Source: Candidatus Tayloriibacteriota bacterium (lineage in GTDB: Bacteria > Patescibacteriota > Minisyncoccia > Phycocordibacterales > PALSA-1337). From it: DNA of 64,000 bases. The translations under genes were made by a program, and so were the position numbers. The notes beneath the pieces were generated by a model. The model was not told the DNA's origin, did not search any database, and saw only the letters and a list, made by a program, of their open reading frames with translations. This document shows, piece by piece, positions 22,315-63,153 of the stretch. Every line of letters starts with the position of its first letter. Positions within the stretch are counted from its first letter, which is position 1. The stretch spans positions 23,236 through 87,235 of the forward strand of contig JBPOID010000004.1 in the NCBI GenBank assembly GCA_052034805.1, given 5' to 3'.

Positions 22315-24264
22315 ATGGATTTATCCAAAAAAGACGAGCTGAATATGAGACAAAAAGAGGCGGTTAATACGCTTGATGGTCCACTTCTAATACTTGCTGG
22401 TGCTGGAGCGGGAAAGACAAAGACTATAACGCATAGAATACTCAATTTAATAAAAAATGGTGTAAATCCAAGAGAAATACTAGCCATAACCTTTACCAAT
22501 AAAGCTGCAAAAGAGATGAGGGAAAGAGTTTTTGATTTATTATCAAAAAATAACGATATAAATAGCCCTATATCTATGAATGAAAAGCCATTTATAAGCA
22601 CTTTTCATGCTTTGGGTGTACATATACTAAAAGAGAATGCCACTCTCATAGGACTTACTAGACATTTTTCTATATTTGACAGAAGTGATTCAAAAAGAGC
22701 GGTAAAAGATGCAATGGAAGTACTTGGTTTCAATCCAAAAGAATATGATCCCGGAACAATACTAAATGCCATTTCAAGAGAAAAAGGTAATGCCATAACA
22801 ATCAATCAATTCAAAGAAAGAACAAAAGATTTCTATGAAAAAATGGTATCCCAAGTATGGGAATTATATGAAAAAACTTTAATGAAAGAAAAATCTTTGG
22901 ATTTTGATGATTTACTTTTAAAGACTTTTCTAATACTCAAAAAATATCCAGAAGTAAAAGAAAAATACAATAGTATTTGGAAATATATTCATATAGACGA
23001 ATATCAAGATACAAATAAAGTTCAATATGGAATTTCAATTCTTCTAGCAGATAAATATAGGAATATCTGTGTAGTGGGTGATATAGATCAAATGATATAT
23101 TCATGGAGAGGTGCTGATATACAAAATATTTTAGATTTCGAGAAAGATTATTCCGAAGCAAAAGTTATATTATTAGAAGAGAATTACAGATCAACACAGA
23201 ACATTCTAGCTGCTGCAAATAATATAATAAAAAAGAATGTAATGAGAAGAGAGAAAAATCTTTTTACAAAAAATAATGAAGGTGAAAAATTAGAATTATT
23301 GATTTCATATACAGAAAATGAAGAGGCGAGAGTAATAGCTGATACAGCGAGAGAAATGATAAATAACGGCCTAAATCCTAAAGAAATTGCAGTATTATAT
23401 AGAACTAATTTCCAAAGTAGAGTTTTGGAAGAAGCTTTTCTAAAGAAAAGTGTACCTTATCAAATACTCGGTACTAGATTTTTCGATAGAAAAGAGATAA
23501 AGGATATATTGTCATTTATAAAAGCATCTTTGAATAGAGAAAGTGTAAATGATTTGATTAGAATAATAAATATTCCACCGAGAGGTATAGGTAAGGTAAC
23601 AATTTTAAAAATAATATCTGGGAAAATAGATACATTGAGTCCAGCTTTGAGAGAAAAAGTTAATCAATTCTTTTTGCTTTTAGACAGGATAAAAGAAATT
23701 ATTCCAAAAGAAAAACCTTCTCAAATAATTAAATATATTCTGAGAGAAACAGGAATAGAAAATATGTATAGAAATGGAACAGAAGAGGAACAAGAAAAAT
23801 TAGAGAACTTAAGAGAATTAGTTTCTCTAGGAGCGCAATATGATTCTCTAGAAAATGGAGAGGGTATAGAAGCATTACTTACAAATGCAGCACTCGCAAC
23901 AGATCAAGATGAATTAGAGAAAGATAAAGATGCAGTAAAACTGATGACTGTACATGCCTCAAAAGGATTGGAATTTGATTATGTATTCATCGCTGGACTA
24001 GAACAAGATTTATTTCCACACAAAAAATTAAGCGAGAATGATATAAGCAGATCTGAAGAAGAGGAAGAAAGAAGACTTTTCTATGTAGCTTTAACCCGTG
24101 CAAGGAAAAAAGTTTATCTAAGCTATGCTCAACTTAGAACTATATTCGGTGCTCAAAAGGTAAATACGCCATCAGAATTCATTTCCGATATAGGTGATGA
24201 ACTGATAGAATCAAAAGGTGATGAAGAAATAAGGGGAGTAAAGGCTATTTTTATAGATTTTTAA
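22315..24264 (+). CDS. pcrA: ATP-dependent DNA helicase UvrD/PcrA family
   Basis: Walker A AGAGAGKT, DEYQDTN box, UvrD C-terminal motifs; 649 aa. Confidence 0.9.
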   Translation: MDLSKKDELNMRQKEAVNTLDGPLLILAGAGAGKTKTITHRILNLIKNGVNPREILAITFTNKAAKEMRERVFDLLSKNNDINSPISMNEKPFISTFHALGVHILKENATLIGLTRHFSIFDRSDSKRAVKDAMEVLGFNPKEYDPGTILNAISREKGNAITINQFKERTKDFYEKMVSQVWELYEKTLMKEKSLDFDDLLLKTFLILKKYPEVKEKYNSIWKYIHIDEYQDTNKVQYGISILLADKYRNICVVGDIDQMIYSWRGADIQNILDFEKDYSEAKVILLEENYRSTQNILAAANNIIKKNVMRREKNLFTKNNEGEKLELLISYTENEEARVIADTAREMINNGLNPKEIAVLYRTNFQSRVLEEAFLKKSVPYQILGTRFFDRKEIKDILSFIKASLNRESVNDLIRIINIPPRGIGKVTILKIISGKIDTLSPALREKVNQFFLLLDRIKEIIPKEKPSQIIKYILRETGIENMYRNGTEEEQEKLENLRELVSLGAQYDSLENGEGIEALLTNAALATDQDELEKDKDAVKLMTVHASKGLEFDYVFIAGLEQDLFPHKKLSENDISRSEEEEERRLFYVALTRARKKVYLSYAQLRTIFGAQKVNTPSEFISDIGDELIESKGDEEIRGVKAIFIDF

Positions 24265-24270: not shown

Positions 24271-25161
24271 ATGAAGAAAATAAAAGAAAATATAGAAAAT
24301 TCAATAGATACTTCAATGGATACAGAGGGTATTGATCAAAACATATCAGAAAACGGCCAAAAATATAGACTTATAGCAAAAAAGTCATTGGGGCAGAACT
24401 TTATACATGCTCCACAGATCATAAGTGCCATGATTCATGCTGGAAATGTTATAAATACTGATATTATCCTTGAAATAGGCCCTGGAAATGGAGCTTTGAC
24501 ATCTAATCTACTGAAAACCGGTGCAAAAATAATAGCAATAGAGAAAGATGATAGAGCAATACCAATATTACAAGATAAATTCTCAAAAGAAATAGAAAAT
24601 GGTCAATTAGAAATTATACATAATGATATTTTGGCTATAAATATAGCTTCTTTAGGATTACAAGCTCATAAATACAAGATAATAGCCAATATTCCTTACT
24701 ATATAAGCGGTGAATTGATTAGGAAATTCCTAGAATCAGATATACAACCAAACAAAATAGTCATAATGTTACAGAAAGAATTAGCAAAAAGAATAGTTGA
24801 TGAAAAGGGCAGTATACTAGCAATGTCAATAAAGGCCTATGGTAAGCCAAAATACATCGTTTCTGTACCTAGAAAATTCTTTAGACCTATACCAAATGTA
24901 GATTCTGCTGTAATTTCTATAGAAAATATAAGCAAAGACTTCTTTTACTTAAATAAAATAAATGAAAATCAATTCTTTGAGGTGCTAAAAACAGGTTTCG
25001 CACATAAAAGAAAAGTATTAATAAAAAATCTAGAAAAAGTCATAGAAAAAGACAAATTAAAAAAGATTTGGGAAAAAGAAAAAATAAGAGAAAACACAAG
25101 AGCAGAGGAGTTAAAATTAGATGATTGGAAAAAGATATTGTTTTCCACAGAAATAGAATAA
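24271..25161 (+). CDS. rsmA: 16S rRNA (adenine1518/1519-N6)-dimethyltransferase RsmA/KsgA
   Basis: LGQNFI...EIGPGNGALT...NIPY motifs. Confidence 0.9.
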   Translation: MKKIKENIENSIDTSMDTEGIDQNISENGQKYRLIAKKSLGQNFIHAPQIISAMIHAGNVINTDIILEIGPGNGALTSNLLKTGAKIIAIEKDDRAIPILQDKFSKEIENGQLEIIHNDILAINIASLGLQAHKYKIIANIPYYISGELIRKFLESDIQPNKIVIMLQKELAKRIVDEKGSILAMSIKAYGKPKYIVSVPRKFFRPIPNVDSAVISIENISKDFFYLNKINENQFFEVLKTGFAHKRKVLIKNLEKVIEKDKLKKIWEKEKIRENTRAEELKLDDWKKILFSTEIE

Positions 25162-25210: not shown

Positions 25211-26197
25211 ATGAAGCAATCGAGCCTAAAAAACCTAGCCTTTATAGTTATTGCCTTGATCGTAATTGGGGCGGTTTTTGCTTTTGCAGAATATAATAAT
25301 AAATCCAGTAAAAATCTAGTATATGATTCATCTACAATAGCATCCAATAAAATAGAAAGTGTAGATCCAGAATTGAAAAATAAAGATACAGATGGAGATG
25401 GTCTAAAAGATTGGGAAGAAACACTTCTTGGTACTGATATAAAAAACAAAGATACCGATGGAGATGGAACTTCCGATGGAGCTGAAGTCAAAGCTGGTAG
25501 AAATCCATTACTAAAAGCTACGAATGATAAAATAGATAGTAATACATCAACAAAATCAGAATCCCAAAAAGAAAAACTAACAAATACAGATATTTTGGCT
25601 AGAGATTTCTTTGCTAAATATATGGAATTAAAACAAGTTGGACTCGCTGAAGACAAAGAAAGCCAACAAGAAATGATAAGTCAGGTACTAAAGGGTGGAT
25701 TGGTAATAGAAAAACCAAAAGACTATACAGTAAGTAATGTAAAAATAATTACAGATAATAGCAAAGAAGCATTAAAGAAATATGGTAATGATACAGGAGC
25801 TATTTTCCAGAAATATATAATAAAAGATTCCAGAAATGAAATGGTAATAGAAAAAGAAGCTTTAGATAAAGAAGATTTTACAGTAATTAAAGAATTAGAT
25901 CCTATTATTTTGAGTTATAAAAATATGCTTTCTGGATTATTAAAAGTGAATACACCACAAAATATAAGTAATATTCATTTAGATATTATAAATAGTTTAA
26001 ATGGTTTAATATTTGCCGATGAATCATTAAAAAAAATAGAATTAGATCCAGTATCTGGAGTACAGGGAACAGCTAATTATCTCGAATCAACAAAGAAATT
26101 AAATATCGCTTTTAATAATTTAAAAAGTAGTTTGAATAATCAAGGAATAATGTATACGAAAGACGAATCCGGTAGTTTCTTTATATCATCAAATTAA
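25211..26197 (+). CDS. Secreted or membrane-anchored protein with thrombospondin type-3-like Ca-binding repeats (DKDTDGDG, two copies); first gene of the T4SS-like operon
   Basis: N-terminal TM/signal; DxDxDGxxD repeats. Confidence 0.5.
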   Translation: MKQSSLKNLAFIVIALIVIGAVFAFAEYNNKSSKNLVYDSSTIASNKIESVDPELKNKDTDGDGLKDWEETLLGTDIKNKDTDGDGTSDGAEVKAGRNPLLKATNDKIDSNTSTKSESQKEKLTNTDILARDFFAKYMELKQVGLAEDKESQQEMISQVLKGGLVIEKPKDYTVSNVKIITDNSKEALKKYGNDTGAIFQKYIIKDSRNEMVIEKEALDKEDFTVIKELDPIILSYKNMLSGLLKVNTPQNISNIHLDIINSLNGLIFADESLKKIELDPVSGVQGTANYLESTKKLNIAFNNLKSSLNNQGIMYTKDESGSFFISSN

Positions 26198-27841
26198 ATG
26201 AAAAATAATAATTTTAAAAAACTAATTTCTGCAACTCTTGTAATAACAATTATATTTTCATCTTTTGCTTTTGCATTACCGAAAAAAGCCGAGGCACAAT
26301 GGGTGGTTACAGATCCTGGAAATATAGTACAGTCAACAATAACAGCAGCAAATACTACATCTAGTGCATTCTCTCAATATTCACTACAATTAAAAGCTTT
26401 CGTTCTTGATACATTAGCAACATCACTTGCAAAACAAGTTATAAGACAAATAACAGCAAGTGTTGTGAATTGGATAAATTCTGGATTCGAAGGCAGTCCA
26501 TCCTTTATCACTAATCCTGGAGCATTTTTCCTAGATGTTGCTGATCAAATAACAGGAGAATTCCTAGCAAAAGCTGGTGGACCATTAACGGCTTTATGTT
26601 CTCCATTCAGTATAGATATACGTATTGCATTATCGTTCAAATATCATCCTAATATCCAGAAAAGATATGCCTGTACAATCGGTACAATAATAAAAAATAG
26701 TAGCAATGCAATAGCTGGAGCAAATATAAATGGATTTACGGCAGGGGATTTCAAACAGGGTGGTTGGCCAGCATTCGTATCTCTTACAACTGAACCTCAG
26801 AACAATCCTTATGGAGCATATCTCACAGCTGATAGTGAACTTTCTCTAAGAGTAGCGAATGCTCAATTGCAACAGAAAGACGAACTTAATCAGGGTGGAG
26901 GATTTCTTTCATATAAAAAATGTAAAGATGTTGATGTTATAGATCCTAGTAGTATATCTGGCTCCGATATACCAGCAGGCGACTCTGGAGATAATGGTTC
27001 AAATGTTGTTGGTTCAGATTATATTGGCCCAATAAATTCTCCTGCGGGTCAAGTTAGAAAACAGAAAAAATGTGAAATAGTAACTCCAGGATCAGTTATA
27101 ATGGGTGCCGTAGAAGCAAATGTAAATGGTCCTTTGCATGAATTACAATTAGTTGATTCCATAAACCAAATCGTTAACGCTCTTTTTGCTCAATTAGTAA
27201 CACAAGTATTAACAAAAGGATTAGGAGCAGTTAGTGGAAATGGACCTAGTGATTCATCTTCATATATTTATCAAATACAAAACGAAAAGAATGGCGAAAT
27301 AGAACAAGTAAGTTCTACAAAAGCAGAATTATTAAAGAATCTAAGTACGTATTTGGATAATGCATTCAAATATAAAGACAATAAAGATCAATCATTAAAT
27401 CTTGCATTAGCAGCAAAGAGTTCTTATGAGGCAGTGAAAACATGTTATGCAAATAAGATTTCAAACAATCAACCTCCATTAACACAATCACAAATGTCTC
27501 AGGCTCAAGATAATATAAATGCTATTGATTCAATAATAACAAGCAATGTAACACCACTGGCATCTAGATTATTAAGTGAAGCACAAAAAGCAGACACTCG
27601 TTATCAAACTCTAATAGATATAAAGACTAGAGCAAATGCAGCAAAAACAGTAAATGAATTATCAGCTCCTAGTACAGAATATTCTCTTATGTTACAGAAC
27701 AGAACTCTAGTTTCTGTTATAGATATTTCAGATTCTAGTCAGGAATTCGAATCAGTCAAAACAACAACAGATACAATGAGACAGGATGCCAATAGGAAAT
27801 TACAGGAATGCCAATTATTCCCTAGTTATGGATTATTTTAA
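26198..27841 (+). CDS. Secreted hypothetical protein (signal peptide), T4SS-like operon
   Basis: 547 aa; cleavable signal MKNNNFKKLISATLVITIIFSSFAFALPKKAEA; start abuts the previous stop. Confidence 0.5.
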   Translation: MKNNNFKKLISATLVITIIFSSFAFALPKKAEAQWVVTDPGNIVQSTITAANTTSSAFSQYSLQLKAFVLDTLATSLAKQVIRQITASVVNWINSGFEGSPSFITNPGAFFLDVADQITGEFLAKAGGPLTALCSPFSIDIRIALSFKYHPNIQKRYACTIGTIIKNSSNAIAGANINGFTAGDFKQGGWPAFVSLTTEPQNNPYGAYLTADSELSLRVANAQLQQKDELNQGGGFLSYKKCKDVDVIDPSSISGSDIPAGDSGDNGSNVVGSDYIGPINSPAGQVRKQKKCEIVTPGSVIMGAVEANVNGPLHELQLVDSINQIVNALFAQLVTQVLTKGLGAVSGNGPSDSSSYIYQIQNEKNGEIEQVSSTKAELLKNLSTYLDNAFKYKDNKDQSLNLALAAKSSYEAVKTCYANKISNNQPPLTQSQMSQAQDNINAIDSIITSNVTPLASRLLSEAQKADTRYQTLIDIKTRANAAKTVNELSAPSTEYSLMLQNRTLVSVIDISDSSQEFESVKTTTDTMRQDANRKLQECQLFPSYGLF

Positions 27842-27844
27842 TTC

Positions 27845-29881
27845 ATGAAAAATAAAAGCAATAAAATTCTAATACTGTCAGCAATAATGGGAATAGCATT
27901 CTTTGTATTACCTTTTATTACAAATGCAGCAGGGGATGGATTCATACAGGGTGTAGGTATATCAGTGGTGAATAGTGCTATAGCGAATATAGCGAATTTC
28001 TTCTTGATGTTATCATCATCTATTGTTTTCTGGACTGGAATGTTGCTGAGTATATCAGTAAGAATAACTCTAAGTATAGGAGATATATATAATTCTATAG
28101 AAGGAATGAAATCAGTATGGGTAACAATAAGAGATTTATCAAGTATATTTATAATATTCTCATTACTTTACTATTCTATAAGGACAATACTTGGCAATGC
28201 AGAAGTCAGTATGAATAAACTGATAATAAAGATATTCATAGCGGGTATAATGATAAACTTCAGTCTATTCTTTGTAAAAATTGCCGTTGATGCTTCGAAT
28301 ATTATTTCGCTTCAATTCTATAATGCAATAACCCCAAGTGATAGTGCTAGATTGACTAATATTGATATTAAACATCTTGCTTCTGTAGAAAATACTATAA
28401 AAGATGCTAGTGGTCTTTCAAATATCTTTATGCAAAGTCTAAAATTACCTAAAATCTATGAAAATACAGGTGTGTTCAAATCAACAGATGTAACAGCAAG
28501 TATAGGATTCGCAGCTATAGCAGGAATAGTAATGATGGTGGTGGCTGGATTATCTTTCTTGGCTGCTTCTTTATCTTTCATAATAAGAACGGCAATATTA
28601 CTCACGATTATGGCTTTGTCTCCATTATTCTTTGCTGGAATGATTTTCCCAGATATAAAGAAGAGGGTTTCAGATAAAATGTCTGGTTTTCTATATAGTC
28701 AATGTGTATTTATGCCTGTTTATTTCTTTCTACTTTATGTAGCTCTTAGAATAATAAGTGATGATGGATTCATGAGTATATTCAATCAGAGTGTAACGAA
28801 TCCATCAGGAGCTACAAATAGTCCAGTATTCGTAGGTACAATAATCCAATACACAATAGCCATAATATTTATAAATCTACCTTTATTAGCTGCGATAGAA
28901 CTCGGTGGTCAGGGTATGAAATGGGCACCACAAGCAAAAGATATTGGTAAATTGTTGGGAGGATTTGCAGGTAGAAATACTGTTGGAAGATTGTCCAGAT
29001 GGGCCGGAGAATCATTTGACAAAGGTGCTGCTAGTGGAAAGGTATTCGGTAGTGAGAATCTATACAGACTAGGAAATAATCCACTCATGTCCAAAGTTAG
29101 TCAGGGTATTAGAGGTGGACTAAGATCTGGTGAAGAATCAAAATATGGTGGATCTGGAAATCTAAGTTCAGTTGAGAAAATAGATAAAGCAAGAAGAGTA
29201 GAGTTAGATACAATGAACAGACAAACTACCAGAAAGTCAGAAATAAGTAGTATTCTAGATAATCGAGCACCTCTAGATCTAAATTCTATAGATAATACAA
29301 AGAGCATAAAAGAAATAGAGAATATAAAGGGAGTATTAAGTAAAATGAATTCTAAAGAAATAGAAAAACTTGGAGATAAATTAAAAGATTCATATGTTGC
29401 GGCAGCTATGAATTCAAAACAAGCTGAAAATATTATGAAATCAGATATGCCAGATAAAAATAAAGAAGATTTTATGAAATCTAGAGCAGAAGGACTGAAG
29501 ATAGCTATGAAAACAATAAGTTCAGGAGATTTTGAATCAATAATGAAAGAGGATTTCAATGATGAACAGAAAAAAGATTTGAAAGATCATAGAGTAAATA
29601 TACTAGAAAAAGCTATAGCATCCGGTAAATCAGATGAAGTCAAAGAATATATGAAAAATCTGTCTGCAAAAGAATTGGCAAAATTAAAGCCCGAGACATT
29701 AAAAGATGTAAATCTAATTAATAATTTATCTCTTGCTCATTTGAAAGAAATGGAAGATACACTAGATAGAGGAACAAAGAGAGTTATAGCTAAACATATT
29801 CGTAACCTACCAGCAGACAATGAGCATAAGGCATACGGATATATGCAAGATGATAAAAACTTTGATAGATGGTCAAAATAA
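27845..29881 (+). CDS. VirB6/TrbL-like polytopic inner-membrane protein with a C-terminal hydrophilic extension
   Basis: 678 aa; signal plus 6 or more TM helices in the first 350 aa, then a charged tail. This topology is typical of VirB6/TrbL. Assignment rests on architecture and context, not on a sequence motif. Confidence 0.5.
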   Translation: MKNKSNKILILSAIMGIAFFVLPFITNAAGDGFIQGVGISVVNSAIANIANFFLMLSSSIVFWTGMLLSISVRITLSIGDIYNSIEGMKSVWVTIRDLSSIFIIFSLLYYSIRTILGNAEVSMNKLIIKIFIAGIMINFSLFFVKIAVDASNIISLQFYNAITPSDSARLTNIDIKHLASVENTIKDASGLSNIFMQSLKLPKIYENTGVFKSTDVTASIGFAAIAGIVMMVVAGLSFLAASLSFIIRTAILLTIMALSPLFFAGMIFPDIKKRVSDKMSGFLYSQCVFMPVYFFLLYVALRIISDDGFMSIFNQSVTNPSGATNSPVFVGTIIQYTIAIIFINLPLLAAIELGGQGMKWAPQAKDIGKLLGGFAGRNTVGRLSRWAGESFDKGAASGKVFGSENLYRLGNNPLMSKVSQGIRGGLRSGEESKYGGSGNLSSVEKIDKARRVELDTMNRQTTRKSEISSILDNRAPLDLNSIDNTKSIKEIENIKGVLSKMNSKEIEKLGDKLKDSYVAAAMNSKQAENIMKSDMPDKNKEDFMKSRAEGLKIAMKTISSGDFESIMKEDFNDEQKKDLKDHRVNILEKAIASGKSDEVKEYMKNLSAKELAKLKPETLKDVNLINNLSLAHLKEMEDTLDRGTKRVIAKHIRNLPADNEHKAYGYMQDDKNFDRWSK

Positions 29882-30678
29882 TTAAAATTATGGAAAATGA
29901 AAATTCAAAAATAAATATGGATGCAAATTTAATAGTAAAAACAATGAGTTCTATTGGTACATATTCAAAATTAGAATCTATTGGAGAAAAGTATAATCTA
30001 ATGATAGATCAAATTGGCCAATTGGAAATAGATACAAGAATGGTAATGATAGGCAAGATAAAATCTGATGATTTTGTAGATACAATAGCCAAAAATCTAG
30101 AAATACCGAGAGAAACTGCTCAGAAAATAGCAGTGGATATAAACAATGAAATCCTAATGACAGTTCGTGAATCAATACGCAAAATGCAAGAAGGTGAATC
30201 TATTGTAGAAGAAAAGATTCCATCCGTACCGCCAATGCCCCCAAGACCTATAGCACAAATGAACACCGAAAGACCTATACCAGTACCAAATCCAATACAA
30301 ACTCCTAACTATAGTCGACCAATACCATCTACACCCCAAACTACATCTCCATATAATCCGCCAATACCACCTATACCTAAAGCTCCACCAGCTTCTCCAA
30401 TAAGAAATACAAATCTATCTGATATAGAAAGAATAGGTGGATTCACTATAGAAAGTAGACCTCTTTCTAATTCTCCTCAATACAATGATACAAATCCAGA
30501 TAGGGAAGAAGTATTAAAAGAAATAGAAAAATACGAAAATACTGGATCAAAAGATGGTATAAGTTTCGTTGATCATTTGCTTTCAAATCCAGTTTCAAAC
30601 AAAGAACAAATAAAAGTTATAAAACCAGAAGTAAAAAAAGATACATATACTACAGATCCTTACAGAGAACCAATATAA
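29869..30678 (+). CDS. Pro-rich hypothetical protein (overlaps previous gene by 13 nt)
   Basis: 269 aa; PPMPPRPI...PIPPIPKAPPASP low-complexity core. Confidence 0.45.
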   Translation: MVKIIKIMENENSKINMDANLIVKTMSSIGTYSKLESIGEKYNLMIDQIGQLEIDTRMVMIGKIKSDDFVDTIAKNLEIPRETAQKIAVDINNEILMTVRESIRKMQEGESIVEEKIPSVPPMPPRPIAQMNTERPIPVPNPIQTPNYSRPIPSTPQTTSPYNPPIPPIPKAPPASPIRNTNLSDIERIGGFTIESRPLSNSPQYNDTNPDREEVLKEIEKYENTGSKDGISFVDHLLSNPVSNKEQIKVIKPEVKKDTYTTDPYREPI

Positions 30679-30698
30679 TAATGATATAATCAACATAT

Positions 30699-31133
30699 AT
30701 GCGTTTCCAAGTACCACAATTCATAGAAGTTGAAGACAAAATATTTGGTCAATTTACCATAAAGCAATTCATATATATGGCGGGTGGCGCTGGATTATCG
30801 TTTGCAGTATACAGACTTATAGGATCATTTATATTTTCAATACCAATAATAATTGTAATAATGGCCTTTTCTGCAGCATTAGCATTTTATAGAATAAATG
30901 AAAGATTTCCTTTTATTTATATAGTGGAAGCAGCATTCAAATATGTATTTTCTAATAAACTCTATATATGGAAAAAAATGGAAAACAAAAAAGTGAATGA
31001 AGATAATACTGATCAAGAAATAAAGAAATATGCATCTGTTATGGTTCCGAAAATTTCTGATAGCAAATTAAAAGATCTTACATGGAGTCTGGATATAAAA
31101 GAGAGTATGTATACAAATAAAAATCAAAAATAA
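30699..31133 (+). CDS. VirB3-like small two-TM membrane protein (PrgI/TrbD analogue)
   Basis: 144 aa, two adjacent TM helices, sits immediately upstream of the VirB4 gene as in T4SS loci. Confidence 0.45.
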   Translation: MRFQVPQFIEVEDKIFGQFTIKQFIYMAGGAGLSFAVYRLIGSFIFSIPIIIVIMAFSAALAFYRINERFPFIYIVEAAFKYVFSNKLYIWKKMENKKVNEDNTDQEIKKYASVMVPKISDSKLKDLTWSLDIKESMYTNKNQK

Positions 31134-31766
31134 ATGCCAAAAGATAAAAAAACAACACAAGATTTCGTACCAATACAAGAAATAAGAGATGGTATTGTTA
31201 TATTAAAAGATAATTCAATGAGAGCGATAGTATTGGCTTCTTCTCTTAACTTTGCATTGAAATCAGCCGATGAACAAAATTCTATTATTTTCCAATTCCA
31301 AAATTTCTTAAACTCTTTAGATTTTTCTGTACAGATTTTCGTACAATCAAAAAGATTAGATATAAGGCCATATATAGCCCTTTTAGAAGAAAGATACAAG
31401 GAACAATTAACAGAATTGATGAAAATACAAACTAGAGAATATATAGAATTCATAAAAACTTTCGTAGAAAATTCTAGTATTATGACAAAAAGTTTCTTTA
31501 TAGTTATACCTTATACTCCACCTCTTATATCTTCTAATTCTAATCCATTAGGAAATCTGATAAATAAAAAAGAGGGTCCAAAAGTTACACCGAATGAACA
31601 ATTCAATGAATACCGAAGTCAGCTAGAGCAGAGAGTAGGGGTTGTTGAGCAAGGATTAGTAAGATGTGGTGTTAGAGTCGCAGAACTTGGAACAGAAGAA
31701 GTGGTAGAATTATATTATAAGATTTTCAATCCTGGAGAAACAGAGAAACCTATACAGATCAATTAA
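31134..31766 (+). CDS. VirB4/TrbE N-terminal domain encoded as a separate ORF
   Basis: QDFVPIQEIRDGIVILKDNSMRAIVLASSLNFALKSADEQNSIIFQFQNFLNSL matches the N-terminal (CagE_TrbE_VirB) domain pattern of VirB4 proteins. Followed by three in-frame TAA codons. Confidence 0.6.
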   Translation: MPKDKKTTQDFVPIQEIRDGIVILKDNSMRAIVLASSLNFALKSADEQNSIIFQFQNFLNSLDFSVQIFVQSKRLDIRPYIALLEERYKEQLTELMKIQTREYIEFIKTFVENSSIMTKSFFIVIPYTPPLISSNSNPLGNLINKKEGPKVTPNEQFNEYRSQLEQRVGVVEQGLVRCGVRVAELGTEEVVELYYKIFNPGETEKPIQIN

Positions 31767-31780
31767 TAATAAAAAATAAA

Positions 31781-33601
31781 ATGGGTATTTTTAGCAAAAT
31801 GTTTGGTAAAAAAGAAGATCCGAAAATAGTATCTCTTATGCCACAAGAGATCTATGAAGCTGGCGTTCTCGAATTAAAGGATATTATCGCTCCTTCAGCA
31901 TTGAAAATAAATCCAAAAGAAATAAATCTTGGAGAAAAGATCGCTAGAACATTTTTCGTTATATCTTATCCTAGATTTCTAACTGATAGTTGGTTTGCCC
32001 CTATAATAAACCTAGATAAGGTCTTTAATATTTCTATTTTTATTCATCCTATAGATACAGCGAGAATATTGAGACATTTCAGAAAGAAGGTTGCCGAAGT
32101 ACAGAGTCAAATAGCTCAAAGGGAACAGAAGGGGCTTGTTAGAGACCCTTTACTTGATACTGCATATCAAGATCTAGAAGCATTGAGAGATAATCTAATG
32201 CAAGCTCAAGAAAAGATTTTTGATGTTGGCGTATATATAACTATATATGGTGATTCTGATTCTGAATTAGATAAAATAGAATCCGAAGTAAAATCCATAC
32301 TAGAATCAAAATTAGTATATATAAAACCAGCATTATTCCAACAAGAAAGTGGATATAGAAGTGTATTACCTATAGCAAATGATGAACTTATGGTTCATTC
32401 TAAACTCAATTCCTCACCACTTTCATCATTATTTCCATTCGTATCTTTCGATTTAACATCAGATAAGGGCATACTTTATGGAATAAACAGACATAATTCA
32501 TCTCTAGTACTTTTCGATAGATTTTTATTAGAAAACTATAATTCCGTAACCTTTGCCAAGGCTGGAGCCGGTAAATCATACAATGTTAAACTAGAAATAC
32601 TTAGAACTTTAATGTTCGATACTGAAGTTATCGTTATAGATCCAGAAAAGGAATACGAATACATGGCAGAAGCAACAGGTGGCAAATATTTTAATATATC
32701 TCTTAATTCTGAACATCATATAAATCCTTTTGACCTTCCTATGCCTAGAGAGGATGAAAGCGCTTCGGATGTTTTGCGTTCAAATATAATAAATTTGGTT
32801 GGACTTTTCCGTATAATGCTTGGCGGATTATCCCAAGAAGAAGATGCAATAATAGATAGAGCTATTACAGAAACTTATGCATTAAAGGATATTACACCTG
32901 AATCTAATTTCAAGAATATTGAGCCACCACTTCTATCTGATTTTGAATTAGTGCTTGCTGGAATGGAAGGAGCTGAATCTCTAGTAGAAAGATTGAGTAA
33001 ATATACAAAGGGAACATGGTCAGGATTCATAAATAGACCTTCAAATGTTGATATAAACAAGAAATTCGTCGTTTTCTCATTGCGAGATATGGAAGATGAA
33101 TTGAAACCAGTAGCAATGTATATAGTTACACATTATATATGGAATGCCATAAGAAAACAGTTGAAAAAGCGTCTTCTAGTCATAGATGAGGCTTGGTGGA
33201 TGATGAAATCAGAGGATACGGCTTCATTCCTACTCAGTTTGGCAAAGAGAGGTAGAAAATATTATTTAGGTTTGGCAACAATAACACAGGATGTTGATGA
33301 TTTCCTTAATTCTCCTTATGGATTGCCTATTATCACGAACTCTTCTATACAAATTCTATTGAAACAAAGTCCAACTTCAATAGATAAAATACAAAAAACA
33401 TTTAATCTAACCGATGAAGAGAAATATCTTCTATTAGAATCAGATTTGGGGGAGGGAATATTCTTCGTAGGACTTAAACATGTAGCCATAAAAGTTGTGG
33501 CTTCTTATACAGAAGATCAAATAATAACTACGAATCCAGCCCAAGTTCTAGCCATAAAGAAAGCCAAGGAAGATTTGGAAAATAGCGAAAATAGTAGATA
33601 A
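31781..33601 (+). CDS. virB4: VirB4/TrbE/PrgJ-family T4SS ATPase (C-terminal ATPase portion)
   Basis: Walker A FAKAGAGKS, Walker B LLVIDEAWWMM; 606 aa; with the preceding 210-aa ORF this totals about 816 aa, typical of VirB4. Confidence 0.85.
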   Translation: MGIFSKMFGKKEDPKIVSLMPQEIYEAGVLELKDIIAPSALKINPKEINLGEKIARTFFVISYPRFLTDSWFAPIINLDKVFNISIFIHPIDTARILRHFRKKVAEVQSQIAQREQKGLVRDPLLDTAYQDLEALRDNLMQAQEKIFDVGVYITIYGDSDSELDKIESEVKSILESKLVYIKPALFQQESGYRSVLPIANDELMVHSKLNSSPLSSLFPFVSFDLTSDKGILYGINRHNSSLVLFDRFLLENYNSVTFAKAGAGKSYNVKLEILRTLMFDTEVIVIDPEKEYEYMAEATGGKYFNISLNSEHHINPFDLPMPREDESASDVLRSNIINLVGLFRIMLGGLSQEEDAIIDRAITETYALKDITPESNFKNIEPPLLSDFELVLAGMEGAESLVERLSKYTKGTWSGFINRPSNVDINKKFVVFSLRDMEDELKPVAMYIVTHYIWNAIRKQLKKRLLVIDEAWWMMKSEDTASFLLSLAKRGRKYYLGLATITQDVDDFLNSPYGLPIITNSSIQILLKQSPTSIDKIQKTFNLTDEEKYLLLESDLGEGIFFVGLKHVAIKVVASYTEDQIITTNPAQVLAIKKAKEDLENSENSR

Positions 33602-33631
33602 ATAGATAAGTTCACTTATTGAAATAATGAT

Positions 33632-34018
33632 ATGGATGAAAAGCCTAAGAAAAAATACAGAATAGGAGGATTTGCTGTAGTAATACTTTTTATTATTGCT
33701 TTATTTTTTGATCTTATAAGTTTTATACCCTTTGTAGGCGATATATTCTGGGTATTTATGAGTTATTATCTGTATAAAACAGGTCATGGATTATTGAATC
33801 TGAGAAGATTAGTGCCTATTATGGTGTCATTTATTACAGAATCTATACCTTTTCTATCTAGTTTGCCTTCGATAATGGCTGCTACTATTAGTATTATAAT
33901 GCTATCCAGAATCGAAGATAAAACTGGAATATCCATAACATCACATACAAATATAGCAAAACCACAAATTCAAGTTCCACTGTATCAAGACGGCAGACGT
34001 TTACCAAAAAAAGTGTGA
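33632..34018 (+). CDS. Small three-TM membrane protein, T4SS-like operon
   Basis: 128 aa, hydrophobic. Confidence 0.5.
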   Translation: MDEKPKKKYRIGGFAVVILFIIALFFDLISFIPFVGDIFWVFMSYYLYKTGHGLLNLRRLVPIMVSFITESIPFLSSLPSIMAATISIIMLSRIEDKTGISITSHTNIAKPQIQVPLYQDGRRLPKKV

Positions 34019-34031
34019 TAAAATAATACTA

Positions 34032-35036
34032 ATGAAATTCCATAAAAAAATAATTATATCAATAATATTTTCATTAGGTCTTTTGGGTTTAGTTCATACT
34101 ACAAATGCACAAATACCTGATTCTATAGATGGAATAGATATTTCTTCAAGTCCAGATAATCCCAACCCAGGACAAAATGTAAATATAAATATTGAGAGTT
34201 ATTCAACCGATTTAAACGGTGCATCTATAGTGTGGATGGTTAATGGTAAGAATTATAAACAGGGAACAGGTATCAAATCCATAAGCATAAAGGCTCCAGA
34301 ACTAGGAAAAAATACAAATATTTTAGTAGCTATTATGACAATAGAAGGAAAACAAATAAAAAAAGCAATTACTATAAAGTCAGGCAGTATTGATCTGGTA
34401 TTAGAAAGCGATGGCTATATACCTCCACTATACAAGGGAAGATCATCATTTGCATATCAAAACTCAATAAGACTTATAGCTGTACCGCATCTAGCGTCGA
34501 ATGATGGGAAAGAATTAGATCCTAAAACTCTATTATATACTTGGTCAGAAAACGACAAGGTTATACAGAATCAGAGTGGCTATGGAAAGCAGGTATTAGT
34601 ATTGAAGGAGGAAACACCGAAGGAAATGAATATGAAAGTTGAAGTCAGCACAAAAACAGGAAGTCAAAAAGCTGTTTCATATATGGTATTAAATCCAACA
34701 GATCCTTCTATTCTATTTTATGAAGAAGATCCTTTATATGGAATACTTTACAATAAAGCATTACTGGGAGACAAAACATTAGATAATCAAGAAATAAATA
34801 TAGTATCTGCACCATATTATTTCAATATGTTAGAGAAAAATTCACCATTATCATTTATATGGAGTATAAATAATCTAGAAAGACCCGAACTATCTACAAG
34901 TCAAACAATAACCCTAAGATCAAAAGGGGATACATCAGGTAGTTCGCTTGTAAAACTAGAAATACGTAATAGCAATGAGATTCTGCAAGGAGGAAGTAAT
35001 AGTATCAAATTGAATTTCAATAAGAAAAATCAGTAA
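34032..35036 (+). CDS. Secreted beta-rich hypothetical protein (signal peptide)
   Basis: 334 aa; signal MKFHKKIIISIIFSLGLLGLVHTTNA. Confidence 0.5.
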   Translation: MKFHKKIIISIIFSLGLLGLVHTTNAQIPDSIDGIDISSSPDNPNPGQNVNINIESYSTDLNGASIVWMVNGKNYKQGTGIKSISIKAPELGKNTNILVAIMTIEGKQIKKAITIKSGSIDLVLESDGYIPPLYKGRSSFAYQNSIRLIAVPHLASNDGKELDPKTLLYTWSENDKVIQNQSGYGKQVLVLKEETPKEMNMKVEVSTKTGSQKAVSYMVLNPTDPSILFYEEDPLYGILYNKALLGDKTLDNQEINIVSAPYYFNMLEKNSPLSFIWSINNLERPELSTSQTITLRSKGDTSGSSLVKLEIRNSNEILQGGSNSIKLNFNKKNQ

Positions 35037-35051
35037 ATAATATACAAATAA

Positions 35052-36173
35052 ATGAAAAAGAAAATTTTATACATATTTATAATAATCATAATTTCTCAAG
35101 GCTTAGGAAGTAGAATAGCTCTAGGTGCAATAGACAGTTATAAATTAATAGAACCAATACCTTGTATAGATGGAACTGGAAATGGCTGTGAAAATGGTTT
35201 AATAAATAATGTTAATGTTGATACATATATAGCTTATATATTCAAAATAGCCATAGCTTTGGCAGGATTTCTGGCTGTAGTAATGATTATATATGGAGGA
35301 TTTACATATATGCTGAGCGAATCCATAACAAGCAAAAGTGGTGCAAAAGATACGATAAAGAATGTCGTATTAGGATTATTAGGGGCATTATCATCATTTT
35401 TAATACTTCAGACTATCGATCCTAGATTAGTAAACATAAATACAACAATACCTAAAATACAAGTTAAAGACGATAGTAGTGTAGACAGATTTGCAAATCA
35501 ATTAAGTTCGGATATGAAACAAATGTCTGCAGAAACAAGAGATCAGGTTGCTAAAATGAAAGATGAGTCAGATAAACTAAAACAGCAAATAGATTCTTTA
35601 AAAAAAGAAATTAGCGATAATCCATCAAATAAAAGTGATTTAGAAAATCAATTATATGAATTAGAAAATCAATGGAAAAAAGCAGAAGCAAATGTAGCAA
35701 AAACTTCTGCAATATCTATAGGTACTACCTATTTCAGAAATGCTTTTGATACAATAACCAAAGAGAATGCTGGTGAGGATTTGGTGGATACTAATTCTGT
35801 AGATAAACATAAAATAGACCTGCAAAAAGCAATGGATTTATACAAAGACAAAGCAAATAATATTGGGGAATACAATACTTCTCAAGATATTACAAATATT
35901 GAAAATTATTATCTCGATCAGATTGATAATGAAAGAATGTTCGTTGATTCAATAGTCAATGGTTATACCAAAGTAGCTAATAGAGTATCTATAAATTATT
36001 CTGTAAGAAAACAATTAATAGAGGATTTCTTGAAAAAATATGAGAATCCAGAAACTGATCCTTATTATCAAAAATATAAACTTTATCCAAATAACGAATT
36101 TATATTAGATAGTTATAAAAAATTACAAGATTCTAGAGCTTCTAGAGCAAAAGAAGTATTAAAGAAAATCTAA
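35052..36173 (+). CDS. VirB2/TrbC-like pilin-type N-terminal module (signal plus two hydrophobic helices) fused to a long coiled-coil domain
   Basis: Signal peptide, then YIAYIFKIAIALAGFLAVVMIIYGGFTYM and KNVVLGLLGALSSFLILQTI helices (VirB2-like topology), then about 230 aa predicted coiled coil. Confidence 0.4.
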   Translation: MKKKILYIFIIIIISQGLGSRIALGAIDSYKLIEPIPCIDGTGNGCENGLINNVNVDTYIAYIFKIAIALAGFLAVVMIIYGGFTYMLSESITSKSGAKDTIKNVVLGLLGALSSFLILQTIDPRLVNINTTIPKIQVKDDSSVDRFANQLSSDMKQMSAETRDQVAKMKDESDKLKQQIDSLKKEISDNPSNKSDLENQLYELENQWKKAEANVAKTSAISIGTTYFRNAFDTITKENAGEDLVDTNSVDKHKIDLQKAMDLYKDKANNIGEYNTSQDITNIENYYLDQIDNERMFVDSIVNGYTKVANRVSINYSVRKQLIEDFLKKYENPETDPYYQKYKLYPNNEFILDSYKKLQDSRASRAKEVLKKI

Positions 36174-36179
36174 TAAACC

Positions 36180-37439
36180 ATGAAAAAAATATTAATAACA
36201 TTACTAATACTCGGAATAATAGGTGGTGGTGCTTATTATTGGTTTTTTTATAAAAATAATACAGATTCAACAATAGAAACAGAAACCCCAACAGACAATA
36301 CTCCTACAAAGAAATTCACCCCAATCAATCGCTCAAACACAAATACAAATAATACAGAGAAAGTATCAACTTCAACAAAAAATACAAATATTGAAAATGT
36401 TAATAATACTGTAAAGATGCCTGCATTAAGAAAGATAAGCGATGTACCAGTAGGGGGTTATATGGCAAGTAGTACAGCTAGTTCTACAGTTATAAGATAT
36501 ATAGATCGTGGTACAGGACATATATTCGAAACTAGAAGTGATACAAACTCCGTTGAAAAGATTTCTAATACCACTATAGCTAGAGTTTATGAGAGTTATT
36601 GGAATAATACTGCAAATAAAGGCATATTTAGATATATAAAAGAGAATTCAAATATAATAACAAATTTATACGGAGAAATATTGCCATCATCTAATACTGG
36701 TACAACATCAGATAAAACAGCTTATCAAACAAAAGGATTGATACTGTCTTCGAATATAACAGAAATGGCTATATCACCCAAAGGAGATAGACTATTTTCA
36801 TTCTATAATGAAGATAATGGGGGAGTGGGCTATATATCTATGTTAAATGGTAGTAAAAATACTAAATTATGGAATACTCCATTCAAACAACTTTATTTTG
36901 ATTGGCCTGAAGAAAATACTATAGTAGCAACGAATAAACCATCCGGTTATTCATTCGGATATTCATATACAATAGATGCAAAAACTGGAATATCAAAAAA
37001 GATAATAAATCAGATATTAGGTCTATCGGTGAAATTAAGTCCTGATGCAAAAAATGCAATTCTTTCTTCTGGTGGTAGTAATATATCTACATTCTTATTC
37101 AATATTAAGAATAATTCTTATCAATCTGTAATCTTTAAAACCTTAGCAGAGAAATGTATTTGGAGTAAGATTAGAAATAATATGATTTATTGTGCTGTTC
37201 CAACAGAAATACCACAAGGATTATATCCAGATGATTGGTATAAAGGAAAAATATCTTTTACAGACAGAATATGGAGTTTCAATATAGATTCTGGGGAAGT
37301 TCATATGTTAGCCGATCTATCATCTCTAGCAAAAACCTTTATTGATACTATGAATTTAAAATTAGATAGTAAAGAAAACTTCTTATATTTCATAAACAAA
37401 AACGACCTAAGTCTATGGTCATTAGATTTGAATCTTTAA
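36180..37439 (+). CDS. Membrane-anchored T/N-rich protein with a probable beta-propeller-like C-terminal domain; last gene of the operon
   Basis: 419 aa, N-terminal TM, T/N-rich linker. Confidence 0.5.
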   Translation: MKKILITLLILGIIGGGAYYWFFYKNNTDSTIETETPTDNTPTKKFTPINRSNTNTNNTEKVSTSTKNTNIENVNNTVKMPALRKISDVPVGGYMASSTASSTVIRYIDRGTGHIFETRSDTNSVEKISNTTIARVYESYWNNTANKGIFRYIKENSNIITNLYGEILPSSNTGTTSDKTAYQTKGLILSSNITEMAISPKGDRLFSFYNEDNGGVGYISMLNGSKNTKLWNTPFKQLYFDWPEENTIVATNKPSGYSFGYSYTIDAKTGISKKIINQILGLSVKLSPDAKNAILSSGGSNISTFLFNIKNNSYQSVIFKTLAEKCIWSKIRNNMIYCAVPTEIPQGLYPDDWYKGKISFTDRIWSFNIDSGEVHMLADLSSLAKTFIDTMNLKLDSKENFLYFINKNDLSLWSLDLNL

Positions 37440-38164
37440 GCTTCTTTTAGGCTTTTCTTTATATATATTTCCTGAGCTAAAGTAAATAAACTAGATACAG
37501 TCCAATACAAAGCAATTACAGCTGAGTATTTGTATGATATTAGAAATATCATAACGGGCACTATATATTTCATATTACTCATCATATTTTGAGTCATATC
37601 TAATTGTTTATTAACATTTGCTGTCTTATTATTATCTTTCTTTGGTGAATTTATAGAGAAATGTAATTGCAAATATTGAGATACCGCGGCTATAATAGCC
37701 ATTGCAGTACTTGCTTTGCTTATATCTAGAATACCTAAGAAATTCATATTTACAGTTGGTATATGAATAAAATCATATAAAATAGTTCGATTAATATCTG
37801 GTAATCCAGATTTTATAAAAATAGAGTAGAGTGCAAATATAATTGGTAATTGTATTATTAAAAATATAAAACTAGAGAAGGGACTTATGCCTTTTTCTTT
37901 ATATAAAGCCATCATTTTCATAGCTTGAGCATTACGATCATTAGCCATAGTTGTCTTTATTTTATTTATTTCTGGCTCTATTTTCTTCATCATAAGCTGA
38001 GTTATTACAGCTTTTTTAGAAAGAGGGAATAGTATAAGTCTCACTATTATAGTAAAGATAATAACAGCCACACCCGCATCAATCCAAGGTAATAAATCCA
38101 TTAGGAATATTAGACCGTTATATAATGGATTGAATATAAATAAAGTGTATAAATGTGAAAACAT
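37436..38164 (-). CDS. yidC: Membrane protein insertase YidC (short form)
   Basis: 242 aa; YidC/Oxa1 core helices; sits in the conserved rpmH-rnpA-yidC arrangement. Confidence 0.85.
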   Translation of the reverse strand: MFSHLYTLFIFNPLYNGLIFLMDLLPWIDAGVAVIIFTIIVRLILFPLSKKAVITQLMMKKIEPEINKIKTTMANDRNAQAMKMMALYKEKGISPFSSFIFLIIQLPIIFALYSIFIKSGLPDINRTILYDFIHIPTVNMNFLGILDISKASTAMAIIAAVSQYLQLHFSINSPKKDNNKTANVNKQLDMTQNMMSNMKYIVPVMIFLISYKYSAVIALYWTVSSLFTLAQEIYIKKSLKEA

Positions 38165-38173: not shown

Positions 38174-38512
38174 CTACTTTAAAAGTCCCAAATTAACAAA
38201 GATTTCTTTTGTATATAATTTTATATCTTCTAAATTCAGTTTTATAATTTCTGGTTTAACTATAAATATAATGTTACCAGTTTCGGTAGGGGATATTGTT
38301 TTAAATGAGTTTATTGAAGAATAAACCCTTCTTCTTATTTTATTTCTAATAACTGCACTCTTTGAGACTTTCTTTGATACAGATACAGCAAACCTTAAAA
38401 GACTTTTGTCCTTTATAAATCTTACTATAAAAATCTTAGAATGTAGGCTTTTGCCTTTGTCTATTACTTTCTTAAAAAGGGCTTTATTAAGCCTTTTTTC
38501 TTTTGGAAGCAT
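38174..38512 (-). CDS. rnpA: Ribonuclease P protein component
   Basis: 112 aa; LPKEKRLNKALFKKV...RNKIRRRV basic RnpA pattern; between rpmH and yidC. Confidence 0.85.
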   Translation of the reverse strand: MLPKEKRLNKALFKKVIDKGKSLHSKIFIVRFIKDKSLLRFAVSVSKKVSKSAVIRNKIRRRVYSSINSFKTISPTETGNIIFIVKPEIIKLNLEDIKLYTKEIFVNLGLLK

Positions 38513-61494: not shown

Positions 61495-61499
61495 ATATT

Positions 61500-62475: not shown

Positions 62476-62563
62476 AGTCTTTCTTTTAGAAATTATACCA
62501 TTTAAACCTTATTTTTACCCATTTTTTCAACATTGACTTTACATAAATATTCATGCTATAATT

Positions 62564-62998: not shown

Positions 62999-63005
62999 TA
63001 AGTTT

Positions 63006-63115: not shown

Positions 63116-63153
63116 ATATATTACTTTTTTATTTTTATGATATAGTTTTTATA

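Follow-up and report, generated by a model that had tools for sequence, protein, structure and literature searches.

A typical Paceibacteria type IV secretion locus beside dnaA in a Candidatus Tayloriibacteriota genome: five core genes and six specific to the lineage

The locus among described systems

The Patescibacteria type IV secretion system (T4SS) is already known, having been described in 2023-2025. An operon of eleven plus-strand genes, at positions 25211-37439 of a 64-kb stretch of a Candidatus Tayloriibacteriota genome (GenBank GCA_052034805.1, contig JBPOID010000004.1; this whole stretch is called the window), is a typical Paceibacteria instance of it. With a probability of about 0.8, the operon encodes the Paceibacteria form of the Patescibacteria-clade T4SS: a VirB4-only conduit that joins episymbiont and host in a contact-dependent way and does not serve conjugation.

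VirB4 has been encountered in 2,417 of 3,035 Patescibacteria genomes and forms a monophyletic clade within the mating-pair formation class FATA (MPF-FATA) (Quinonero-Coronel et al. 2025, PMC12102498). According to this survey, the T4SS of these bacteria comes with TrsD, PrgI/VirB3, VirB6 and VirB2-like pilins and with almost no relaxases. VirD4-like genes are located elsewhere in most of the genomes and seldom close to virB4; the T4SS of Paceibacteria and Microgenomatia lies beside dnaA, dnaN, rnpA, ksgA and rpmH (PMC12102498). The window shows nothing essentially different from the system so described: VirB4, a separate TrsD, PrgI/VirB3, VirB6 and a VirB2-like pilin are the same, a relaxase is likewise missing, and the neighbourhood is again that of dnaA, dnaN, rnpA, ksgA (rsmA) and rpmH (PMC12102498).

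All eleven open reading frames (ORFs) are intact:

ORF1, 25211-26197, plus strand: 328 aa; anchor or signal and two thrombospondin-type-3 Ca-binding repeats; lineage-specific accessory protein
ORF2, 26198-27841, plus strand: 547 aa; secreted; candidate VirB5-like stalk or tip protein
ORF3, 27845-29881, plus strand: 678 aa; extended VirB6-like polytopic channel subunit
ORF4, 29869-30678, plus strand: 269 aa (probably 262 aa from 29890); cytoplasmic (probably), Pro-rich
ORF5, 30699-31133, plus strand: 144 aa; PrgI/VirB3-like membrane protein
ORF6, 31134-31766, plus strand: 210 aa; TrsD-like, the VirB4 N-terminal domain as a gene of its own
ORF7, 31781-33601, plus strand: 606 aa; motor; VirB4 ATPase with its middle and its C-terminal P-loop domain
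ORF8, 33632-34018, plus strand: 128 aa; small multi-pass membrane protein; variable accessory protein
ORF9, 34032-35036, plus strand: 334 aa; secreted, beta-rich; lineage-specific extracellular protein
ORF10, 35052-36173, plus strand: 373 aa; VirB2-like pilin module and C-terminal extension
ORF11, 36180-37439, plus strand: 419 aa; N-terminal membrane anchor, then a low-complexity linker and ~330 aa of conserved beta-rich domain; lineage-specific extracellular protein

The genes are separated, from ORF1 to ORF11, by 0, 3, -13, 20, 0, 14, 30, 13, 15 and 6 nt. The overlap of 13 nt between ORF3 and ORF4 is probably not real, because the database homologues of ORF4 begin at Met8 (position 29890), in which case it would vanish.

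The T4SS cluster of Southlakia epibionticum (Se), SEML1_0006-0019, was found by transposon sequencing to be essential for epibiotic growth, and its lack of a relaxase and a coupling protein was remarked upon (Wang et al. 2023, PMC10633639). Both loci are chromosomal, lie near the origin and keep the core order VirB6-like, PrgI, TrsD-like, VirB4. They also share VirB6-like proteins with long helical tails, VirB2-like pilins and the absence of a relaxase or coupling protein from the cluster. In the Se cluster, by contrast, the pilins are small and stand six in tandem, the VirB6-like genes number two, and lysozyme genes and an NTF2-like (VirB8-like) gene are present; the window encodes a single pilin, extended by 250 aa, with no hydrolase within the operon and no sequence signal of an NTF2-like gene. 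ORF1, 2, 4, 9 and 11 were not detected in the Se annotation table, a comparison made at the level of annotation.

With the conjugation machinery of MPF-FATA, represented by Prg/Pcf of pCF10, the window has in common a CD1110-type VirB4 (26% identical to PrgJ), the PrgI family, PrgH/VirB6 homology over the transmembrane (TM) region and the order VirB6, VirB3, VirB4. The separate TrsD-type N-domain matches the Trs subclass of pGO1/pSK41. Unlike these systems, the locus has no PcfC, no PcfG, no PrgK-type hydrolase, no sequence signal of PrgL/PrgD VirB8-like proteins and no LPXTG adhesins, but does have a VirB2-like pilin, and it is chromosomal and not mobile. Models built on mycoplasma elements of the integrated conjugative type, the NCBIfam families Mbov_0395 (pilin-like) and Mbov_0397 (VirB4), also match ORF10, ORF6 and ORF7.

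A relaxase-free T4SS-like locus with the same core order is present on the 898-kb chromid of Pontibacillus sp. ALD_SL1 (NZ_CP062975.1, 7492-17045), a replicon typed as non-mobilizable. It consists of two pilins, a VirB6-like protein (779 aa), a PrgI-like and a TrsD-like protein and a short VirB4, followed by an M23 hydrolase gene. Its VirB4 is 34% and its TrsD-like protein 29% (1.7e-23) identical to those of the window, the ORF5 profile finds the protein at the PrgI position at 1.8e-9, and the profiles of ORF3, 5, 6 and 10 match proteins of the locus. Its pilins are short, it is not beside the origin, and ORF1, 2, 4, 8, 9 and 11 have no counterparts in it. The architecture with a split VirB4 and a pilin is thus not confined to Patescibacteria. 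Since the Pontibacillus locus matches one part of the operon and lacks the other, the operon is divided into a five-gene core (ORF3, 5, 6, 7 and 10) and six lineage-specific genes (ORF1, 2, 4, 8, 9 and 11). Pontibacillus is a free-living member of the Bacillota, and its locus adjoins flagellar genes.

Functionally, the window is also comparable with ComB of Helicobacter pylori and the archaeal Ced system, which combine a VirB4-type ATPase with VirB2/3/6-type parts without a coupling protein, VirB11 or relaxase (PMC11665869, PMC12102498). Both import DNA; the likeness bears on a model of uptake and not on membership (PMC11665869, PMC12102498). ComB possesses a diderm VirB7-10 core, unlike the window, and a Ced assignment finds no support, with CedB at 2.1e-8 and 33 bits (cut-off 700) and no CedA-type matches.

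Added here to the known system are the structural support for VirB6, the split between core and lineage-specific genes, a C-terminal motif in ORF4 and the variable extension of the pilin. No description of the lineage-specific components or of the ORF4 tail was found in what was read of the literature on the system; the published survey relied on hidden Markov models (HMMs) of T4SS parts already known (PMC12102498). The DPYREP tail of ORF4, an ORF2 domain that could not be modelled, the pilin extension and the core/lineage partition seem undescribed so far.

Core components and their conservation

Five operon genes, ORF3, 5, 6, 7 and 10, are confirmed in their T4SS identity. The translocon at the cytoplasmic membrane consists of the ORF3 channel, ORF5 and a VirB4 encoded by two genes, ORF6 and ORF7. 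To this are added the ORF10 pilin with a hypervariable surface extension, the extracellular or membrane proteins ORF1, 2, 8, 9 and 11, and ORF4 on the cytoplasmic side.

The motor is recognized by its similarity to the NCBIfam CD1110 family (2.8e-111, 373 bits, cut-off 325) and to the TraG P-loop domain (1.2e-26). Walker A of ORF7 (AKAGAGKS) is located at aa 259-266 (nt 32555-32578) and Walker B (LLVIDE) at aa 465-470 (nt 33173-33190). The match of ORF6 to VirB4 models is confined to their N-terminal 100-230 positions, and the TrsD family is matched as well: VirB4_plasma at 2.1e-10 (profile positions 99-233), TrsD at 4.6e-7, positions 1-112 of the CD1110 profile and positions 6-142 of VirB4_CagE. 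Judged by these matches, VirB4 is split over the two genes ORF6 and ORF7. ORF5 belongs to the Pfam family PrgI (3e-10, 40.9 bits, cut-off 27), and as a PrgI/VirB3-like protein it would anchor VirB4 at the membrane.

A scan for VirB4 with one genome per GTDB species found relatives in at least 587 species-level genomes. The locus counts given in this text rest on the best 80 of these, whose VirB4 is 77-91% identical to ORF7. In all 80 orthologues, the residues of the Walker A core G-x-GKS are invariant. ORF6 is a separate ORF in 79 of the 80 loci, so that the split is not a frameshift, and ORF5 is likewise present in 79. Where the name of a relative is informative, it belongs to the Parcubacteria/Paceibacteria (Taylor-, Zambryski-, Kaiser-, Campbell- and Wolfebacteria). 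Among VirB4 proteins on plasmids, the nearest are all from monoderms (Streptomyces, Pontibacillus, Clostridium, Bacillus) and reach 29-35% identity; the match with the best coverage is that of the Pontibacillus chromid. This distance of non-Patescibacteria plasmids, against the 77-91% of Parcubacteria/Patescibacteria, strongly suggests that ORF7 belongs to the Patescibacteria VirB4 clade.

The closest relatives (VirB4 86-91%) are often deposited as "uncultured Candidatus Saccharibacteria bacterium". This is probably a wrong, default label on these metagenome-assembled genomes, because equally close ones are named Parcubacteria, Paceibacterota or Taylorbacteria and because the architecture of the locus differs from that of Saccharibacteria.

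In the same genomes, the median identity to the window proteins is 82% for VirB4, 66% for TrsD and 56% for PrgI, compared with 62% for DnaA, 52% for DnaN and 47% for RsmA, and with 29-35% for ORF1, 2, 3, 4, 9, 10 and 11. On these figures, the motor is under tighter constraint than the replication initiator and the surface parts evolve fast. The contrast in constraint within one operon (VirB4 82% vs. ~30% for the extracellular proteins) is unusually strong.

ORF3 is composed of a signal or anchor, a helical TM domain (aa ~40-355) and a helical hydrophilic tail of 300 aa. The Patescibacteria-clade T4SS is characterized by a VirB6 homologue near virB4, and ORF3 is such a homologue. Its orthologue alignment aligns with PrgH/VirB6 over the TM region (hhalign against pCF10 proteins). 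The predicted structure provides structural confirmation of ORF3 as a VirB6, for a Paceibacteria protein that no HMM detects. For the known stalk structures used in the comparison, R388 VirB5-VirB6 (PDB 7o3v) and the Legionella DotA-IcmX protochannel (PDB 9ngy), the sequence identity amounts to 9-10%, and ORF3 carries the 300-aa tail in addition. A precomputed PF19590 tag on ORF3 homologues was not reproduced by Pfam rescans at E<=10 and was not used.

The pilin, ORF10, begins with a signal peptide and a two-helix hairpin (aa ~25-125), followed by a coiled-coil extension of ~250 aa. The Pfam family T4SS_pilin (PF18895) is matched in 28 of 30 orthologues, at best with 4.7e-10, and the window copy matches the NCBIfam pilin-like family Mbov_0395 at 9.5e-5. 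The extension is only 3-12% identical between species, the orthologues range from 263 to 628 aa in total, and in single orthologues the extension bears an SLT, Peptidase_M15_4 or He_PIG domain. It is as if the pilin hairpin served to anchor variable surface modules in the membrane or the pilus.

Lineage-specific genes

A candidate for a stalk or tip protein is ORF2. Its N-terminus matches DUF4141 above the cut-off and the TrbJ N-terminus at 8.4e-5. The region aa ~60-350 is a strongly conserved, Cys-containing domain, with 35 invariant columns including six Cys in 80 homologues; no other extracellular domain of the operon is conserved as strongly. AlphaFold2 nevertheless models this region with a pLDDT (predicted local distance difference test) below 60 despite a deep alignment, whereas the less conserved C-terminal bundle exceeds 90. 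The domain may have a new fold, or its folding may depend on a partner. The C-terminus is confidently predicted as a three-helix bundle, which matches VirB5 no better than many unrelated bundles. ORF2 has 547 aa and a large conserved Cys-containing domain that VirB5 does not possess, and its VirB5-like nature is putative.

ORF4 has a conserved helical N-domain of ~90 aa, a hypervariable Pro-rich linker and the near-invariant C-terminus D-P-Y-R-E-P(-I). It has no hydrophobic segment and no Pfam or NCBIfam match, and is probably cytoplasmic. In 56 of 57 loci, the VirB6-like gene is separated from PrgI by a gene whose product has a C-terminal D-x-Y-[RKH]-E motif. Such a tail looks like a docking peptide or a secretion signal; ORF4 is a candidate adaptor or substrate.

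ORF1, always the first gene of the operon, has an orthologue in 45 of the 80 loci (median identity 29%). It matches TSP3_bac above the cut-off (8.9e-10) and contains a single hydrophobic segment (aa 8-26) and a mainly helical C-terminal domain. A VirB8-like identity of this domain was considered and set aside, the sequence being mostly helical by eye. ORF8 has two to three hydrophobic segments and only sub-threshold Pfam matches. Between VirB4 and ORF9, 49 of 67 loci have a small ORF with two or more TM segments; none is present where this gap is shorter than 61 nt.

ORF9 starts with a signal-peptide-like sequence and has an orthologue in 76 of the 80 loci (median identity 34%). Faint matches to domains of the immunoglobulin (Ig) type, namely BiPBP_C in 7 of 31 orthologues, Ig_3, PKD_3 and Hoc (0.0044), suggest that it probably consists of tandem Ig-like domains. 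ORF11, with a single hydrophobic segment (aa 4-22), has an orthologue in 59 of the 80 loci; at E<=1e-3, its family comprises 3,256 cluster representatives. No Pfam or NCBIfam match was obtained in 31 members of this family, and a TolB hint has an E of 0.25; the beta-rich domain is possibly a beta-propeller.

Orthologue profiles of ORF2, 3, 9 and 11 gave nothing below E 0.004 against all PDB sequences, the matches obtained being designed or coiled-coil proteins. When ten orthologue alignments were compared by hhalign with 15 single T4SS proteins of pCF10, only PrgH (with ORF3) and, weakly, PrgI (with ORF5) were recovered; the same comparison missed the known relation between TrsD and VirB4, so its negatives weigh little.

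A cell-wall hydrolase is encoded outside the operon:

LysM and M23 endopeptidase, 20895-22001, minus strand: Peptidase_M23 6.2e-30, LysM 1.2e-21

The gene lies 3.2 kb upstream of the operon and is kept upstream of uvrD in the relatives where the flank reaches that far. Candidate VirB1 proteins bearing M23 or LysM go together with virB4 in Paceibacteria (PMC12102498). The protein is a possible VirB1-type hydrolase of the system. A housekeeping role is equally possible; its best NCBIfam matches are the cell-division endopeptidases DipM and ActS.

Most of the gene-level claims of an earlier, sequence-only reading of the window are borne out: the eleven tightly packed, co-directional genes with their coordinates and spacing, the VirB4-family ATPase with both Walker motifs, the VirB6-like polytopic protein with a long hydrophilic tail (ORF3, now with structure and PrgH similarity), the VirB3-like protein (ORF5), the VirB2-like pilin module (ORF10, below threshold in the window copy) and the Ca-binding repeat protein (ORF1). 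That reading had named a lack of VirB4 similarity as what would count against it, and the similarity found is strong. It had also listed further secreted or membrane proteins without homology. This is correct for ORF1, 8, 9 and 11 as secreted or membrane proteins and needs revision for ORF6, which is the VirB4 N-domain, for ORF4, which is probably cytoplasmic, and for ORF2, with its DUF4141/TrbJ signal.

Genomic setting and probable function

The operon has the following neighbours:

UvrD, 22315-24264, upstream of the operon (Pfam)
RsmA/KsgA, 24271-25161, upstream of the operon (Pfam)
YidC, 37436-38164, downstream, other strand (Pfam)
RnpA, 38174-38512, downstream, other strand
RpmH, 38514-38678, downstream, other strand
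DnaA, 38823-40166, downstream, after RpmH
DnaN, 40389-41492, downstream, after DnaA

The order uvrD-rsmA-ORF1-11-yidC-rnpA-dnaA-dnaN-PBP1 is kept in essentially all loci with enough flanking sequence. The dnaA-dnaN spacer (40167-40388) lies where the window is richest in AT (GC 0.25), and in it four DnaA-box-like 9-mers with one mismatch each, at 40173, 40275, 40328 and 40336, form a cluster (40173-40344); this spacer is likely oriC. Over the whole window, the number of DnaA boxes is not significantly above chance (32 observed vs. 22.5 +/- 4.7 expected), and the GC skew has no clean switch at dnaA. The position of the operon next to the origin is consequently inferred from the gene context and the box cluster. 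The operon has a GC content of 0.310, compared with 0.317 for the rest of the window, and the correlation of tetranucleotide usage between the two (r = 0.90) is within the range of other 12-kb windows. A scan for promoters and terminators was uninformative on the operon structure, with fewer promoter-like sites than in shuffled sequence; it gave no convincing terminator inside the operon.

Further upstream, RNA-turnover genes are concentrated: RNase Y (1641-3170), a gene of the CCA-adding/poly(A) polymerase type (9674-11164), an NYN-domain RNase (14739-15305) and PNPase (15309-17186). PNPase is central to a host-RNA-feeding model for Patescibacteria (bioRxiv 10.64898/2026.06.21.733656). Directly after it, an ORF of 511 aa (17203-18738) has no Pfam or NCBIfam match; the gene is also called in an overlapping NCBI contig.

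No relaxase, VirD4/TcpA or VirB11 was found among the scanned window ORFs of at least ~120 aa (a few of 100-190 aa, in 60976-63591, were outside the scan); the scanned ORFs are housekeeping genes or unknowns. The pCF10 coupling protein PcfC, the relaxase PcfG, PrgK, PrgL and PrgD had no tblastn match in the window or the 80 loci; for the coupling protein, the area covered is the 64-kb window and +/-10 kb around VirB4 in the relatives. Recognition of an oriT depends on a relaxase family. A repeat search revealed no att-like direct repeats around the operon, and no tRNA genes flank it. The only recombinase of the window, at 12712-13707 on the minus strand, is XerD/XerC-like over its full length (3e-73) and is situated 11.5 kb upstream of the operon, beyond PNPase, ComM and other core genes. 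It is most likely a chromosome-dimer resolvase and not the integrase of a mobile element. A PilB-type ATPase (48231-49910, minus strand) was rejected as VirB11, since its best match is the type IV pilus PilB (7e-135). This gene lies ~11 kb beyond the operon, so a type IV pilus system for attachment or motility exists separately in this genome.

With fixed synteny, native composition, no repeats and no relaxase, coupling protein or integrase in reach, the locus is not a mobile element. In the absence of a relaxase, a coupling protein and VirB11 nearby, conjugation is very unlikely. On the setting, too, the sequence-only reading largely holds. The flanking genes identified confirm the position between rsmA and yidC-rnpA-rpmH-dnaA, the composition is native as claimed, and the synteny check it had proposed shows the order kept in practically all loci of sufficient length among the best 80 genomes. 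Its view of a chromosomal secretion or cell-contact apparatus, and not a conjugative element, is supported by synteny, composition and the missing relaxase and coupling protein. Its placement next to the origin stands on the dnaA/dnaN context and the DnaA-box cluster but is not echoed by the GC skew. Its list of missing genes is right for relaxase, VirD4 and VirB11 in the scanned ORFs; as to an integrase, it had overlooked the XerD/XerC-like recombinase.

The favoured reading, a VirB4-only conduit to the host, supposes descent from monoderm (MPF-FATA) conjugation machinery that became fixed in the chromosome and vertically inherited beside the origin. A VirB4 hexamer would dock on VirB3/VirB6 and extract pilin from the membrane, giving a conduit, pilus- or stalk-like, that crosses the cell wall. 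The host-facing part would be formed or decorated by ORF2 (possibly VirB5-like), ORF9, ORF11 and the pilin extension, and the fast evolution of these extracellular parts (~30% vs. 82% for VirB4) would be an adaptation to different hosts.

The known VirB4-only T4SSs are either DNA importers (ComB, Ced) or, in the case of Ptl, exporters of periplasmic cargo. As in ComB and Ced, the direction we lean towards, at somewhat less than even odds, is import, with macromolecules of the host (nucleic acids or other building blocks) taken up. Models of uptake have been proposed (PMC12102498, PMC11665869, PMC12857230). In reviews the role is given as "completely unknown", with delivery of effectors and uptake of host molecules both under discussion (PMC11665869, PMC12857230). 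For a Microgenomatia co-culture, a 2026 preprint reports acquisition of host RNA and tubular connections, possibly T4SS pili (bioRxiv 10.64898/2026.06.21.733656).

Several points weigh against the conduit reading. Essentiality is known from one Saccharibacterium only, the locus of which differs, and the Paceibacteria version is known from genes alone. A VirD4-like gene may sit elsewhere in the genome, as in most Patescibacteria (PMC12102498), which makes "VirB4-only" a local statement. The sequence gives no sign of the direction of transport. No sequence signal of a VirB8-like protein (NTF2 fold; PrgL, TraM, TcpC) was obtained in the operon with Pfam, NCBIfam, tblastn or single-sequence hhalign, the last of which is insensitive, and no VirB1-type cell-wall hydrolase was found among the eleven operon genes with Pfam and NCBIfam. 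The pilin copy of the window matches T4SS_pilin under the cut-off (2.7e-4, 21.4 bits, cut-off 26.6), and an extension of 250 aa may be incompatible with a canonical pilus.

As the main alternative, it is possible, though on the unlikely side, that the apparatus exports effectors or other proteins into or onto the host in order to subvert it, the substrates being either Sec-exported and captured beyond the membrane, as in Ptl, or cytoplasmic and recognized with no canonical coupling protein, as in the VirB system of Brucella; ORF4 could then be a substrate or a substrate adaptor. Exporters without a coupling protein do exist in Bordetella (Ptl) and Brucella (PMC12857230), and Wang et al. considered that the Se system "may instead export proteins" (PMC10633639). 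The cytoplasmic ORF4, whose extreme C-terminal motif in 56 of 57 loci resembles a docking or secretion signal, and the signal peptides of several operon products are in agreement with export. No effector-like gene or toxin domain is found in or beside the operon, however, and no coupling protein or chaperone nearby. It can also be argued that a motor conserved across lineages with very different hosts fits generic transport better.

The six Paceibacteria-specific genes could, as an unlikely but more far-reaching idea, form a module that replaces the VirB8, VirB1, adhesin and coupling functions and defines a distinct Paceibacteria T4SS subtype. ORF4 would be an adaptor docking on VirB4/TrsD, or a universal substrate, in place of the coupling protein. 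The VirB6 stalk would be capped by ORF2 as a giant protein of the VirB5-like kind, and the Ig-like ORF9 and the beta-rich ORF11 would build a wall-spanning, host-piercing tube. If this were true, the Paceibacteria T4SS would be a subtype with its own substrate-selection logic.

That the operon makes a pilus or adhesion organelle only, with VirB4 assembling a VirB2-type pilus or fibre that binds or senses the host and through which no substrate passes, seems improbable. VirB4 is the pilus-biogenesis ATPase of canonical systems (PMC12102498), no substrate-recruitment ATPase lies nearby, and the hypervariable pilin extension and fast-evolving extracellular partners recall adhesins. These genomes, however, already encode type IV pili for attachment (the PilB-type ATPase), both the extended channel protein VirB6 and the cytoplasmic protein with the conserved motif are retained, and the essentiality observed in Se exceeds what type IV pili provide. 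An integrated conjugative element or its remnant, with relaxase, coupling protein and integrase outside the window or decayed, is highly improbable, even if the CD1110 family is named for conjugative elements, a tyrosine recombinase is present at 12712-13707 and relaxases occur in a small minority of Patescibacteria (PMC12102498), since the rsmA-yidC context is kept in dozens of species, VirB4 is more conserved than DnaA, the composition is native without flanking repeats or tRNA, the recombinase is XerD/XerC-like, with 11.5 kb of housekeeping genes between it and the operon, the eleven ORFs are all intact, and neither a relaxase nor a coupling protein is present within 10 kb in the 80 loci.

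The window is thus a clean, complete Paceibacteria example of the Patescibacteria T4SS and no new system. A large part of the diversity of bacteria is made up of Patescibacteria, which seem to draw their living from other cells, and the small number of candidate machines for exchange between episymbiont and host includes the T4SS: essential in the one species tested, nearly universal, and in this lineage with a motor more conserved than DnaA. The six lineage-specific genes offer handles on how cargo is selected and moved without a nearby coupling protein; the main handles are the DPYREP-tailed protein, the Cys-containing domain of ORF2 and, in the core, the hypervariable extension of the pilin.

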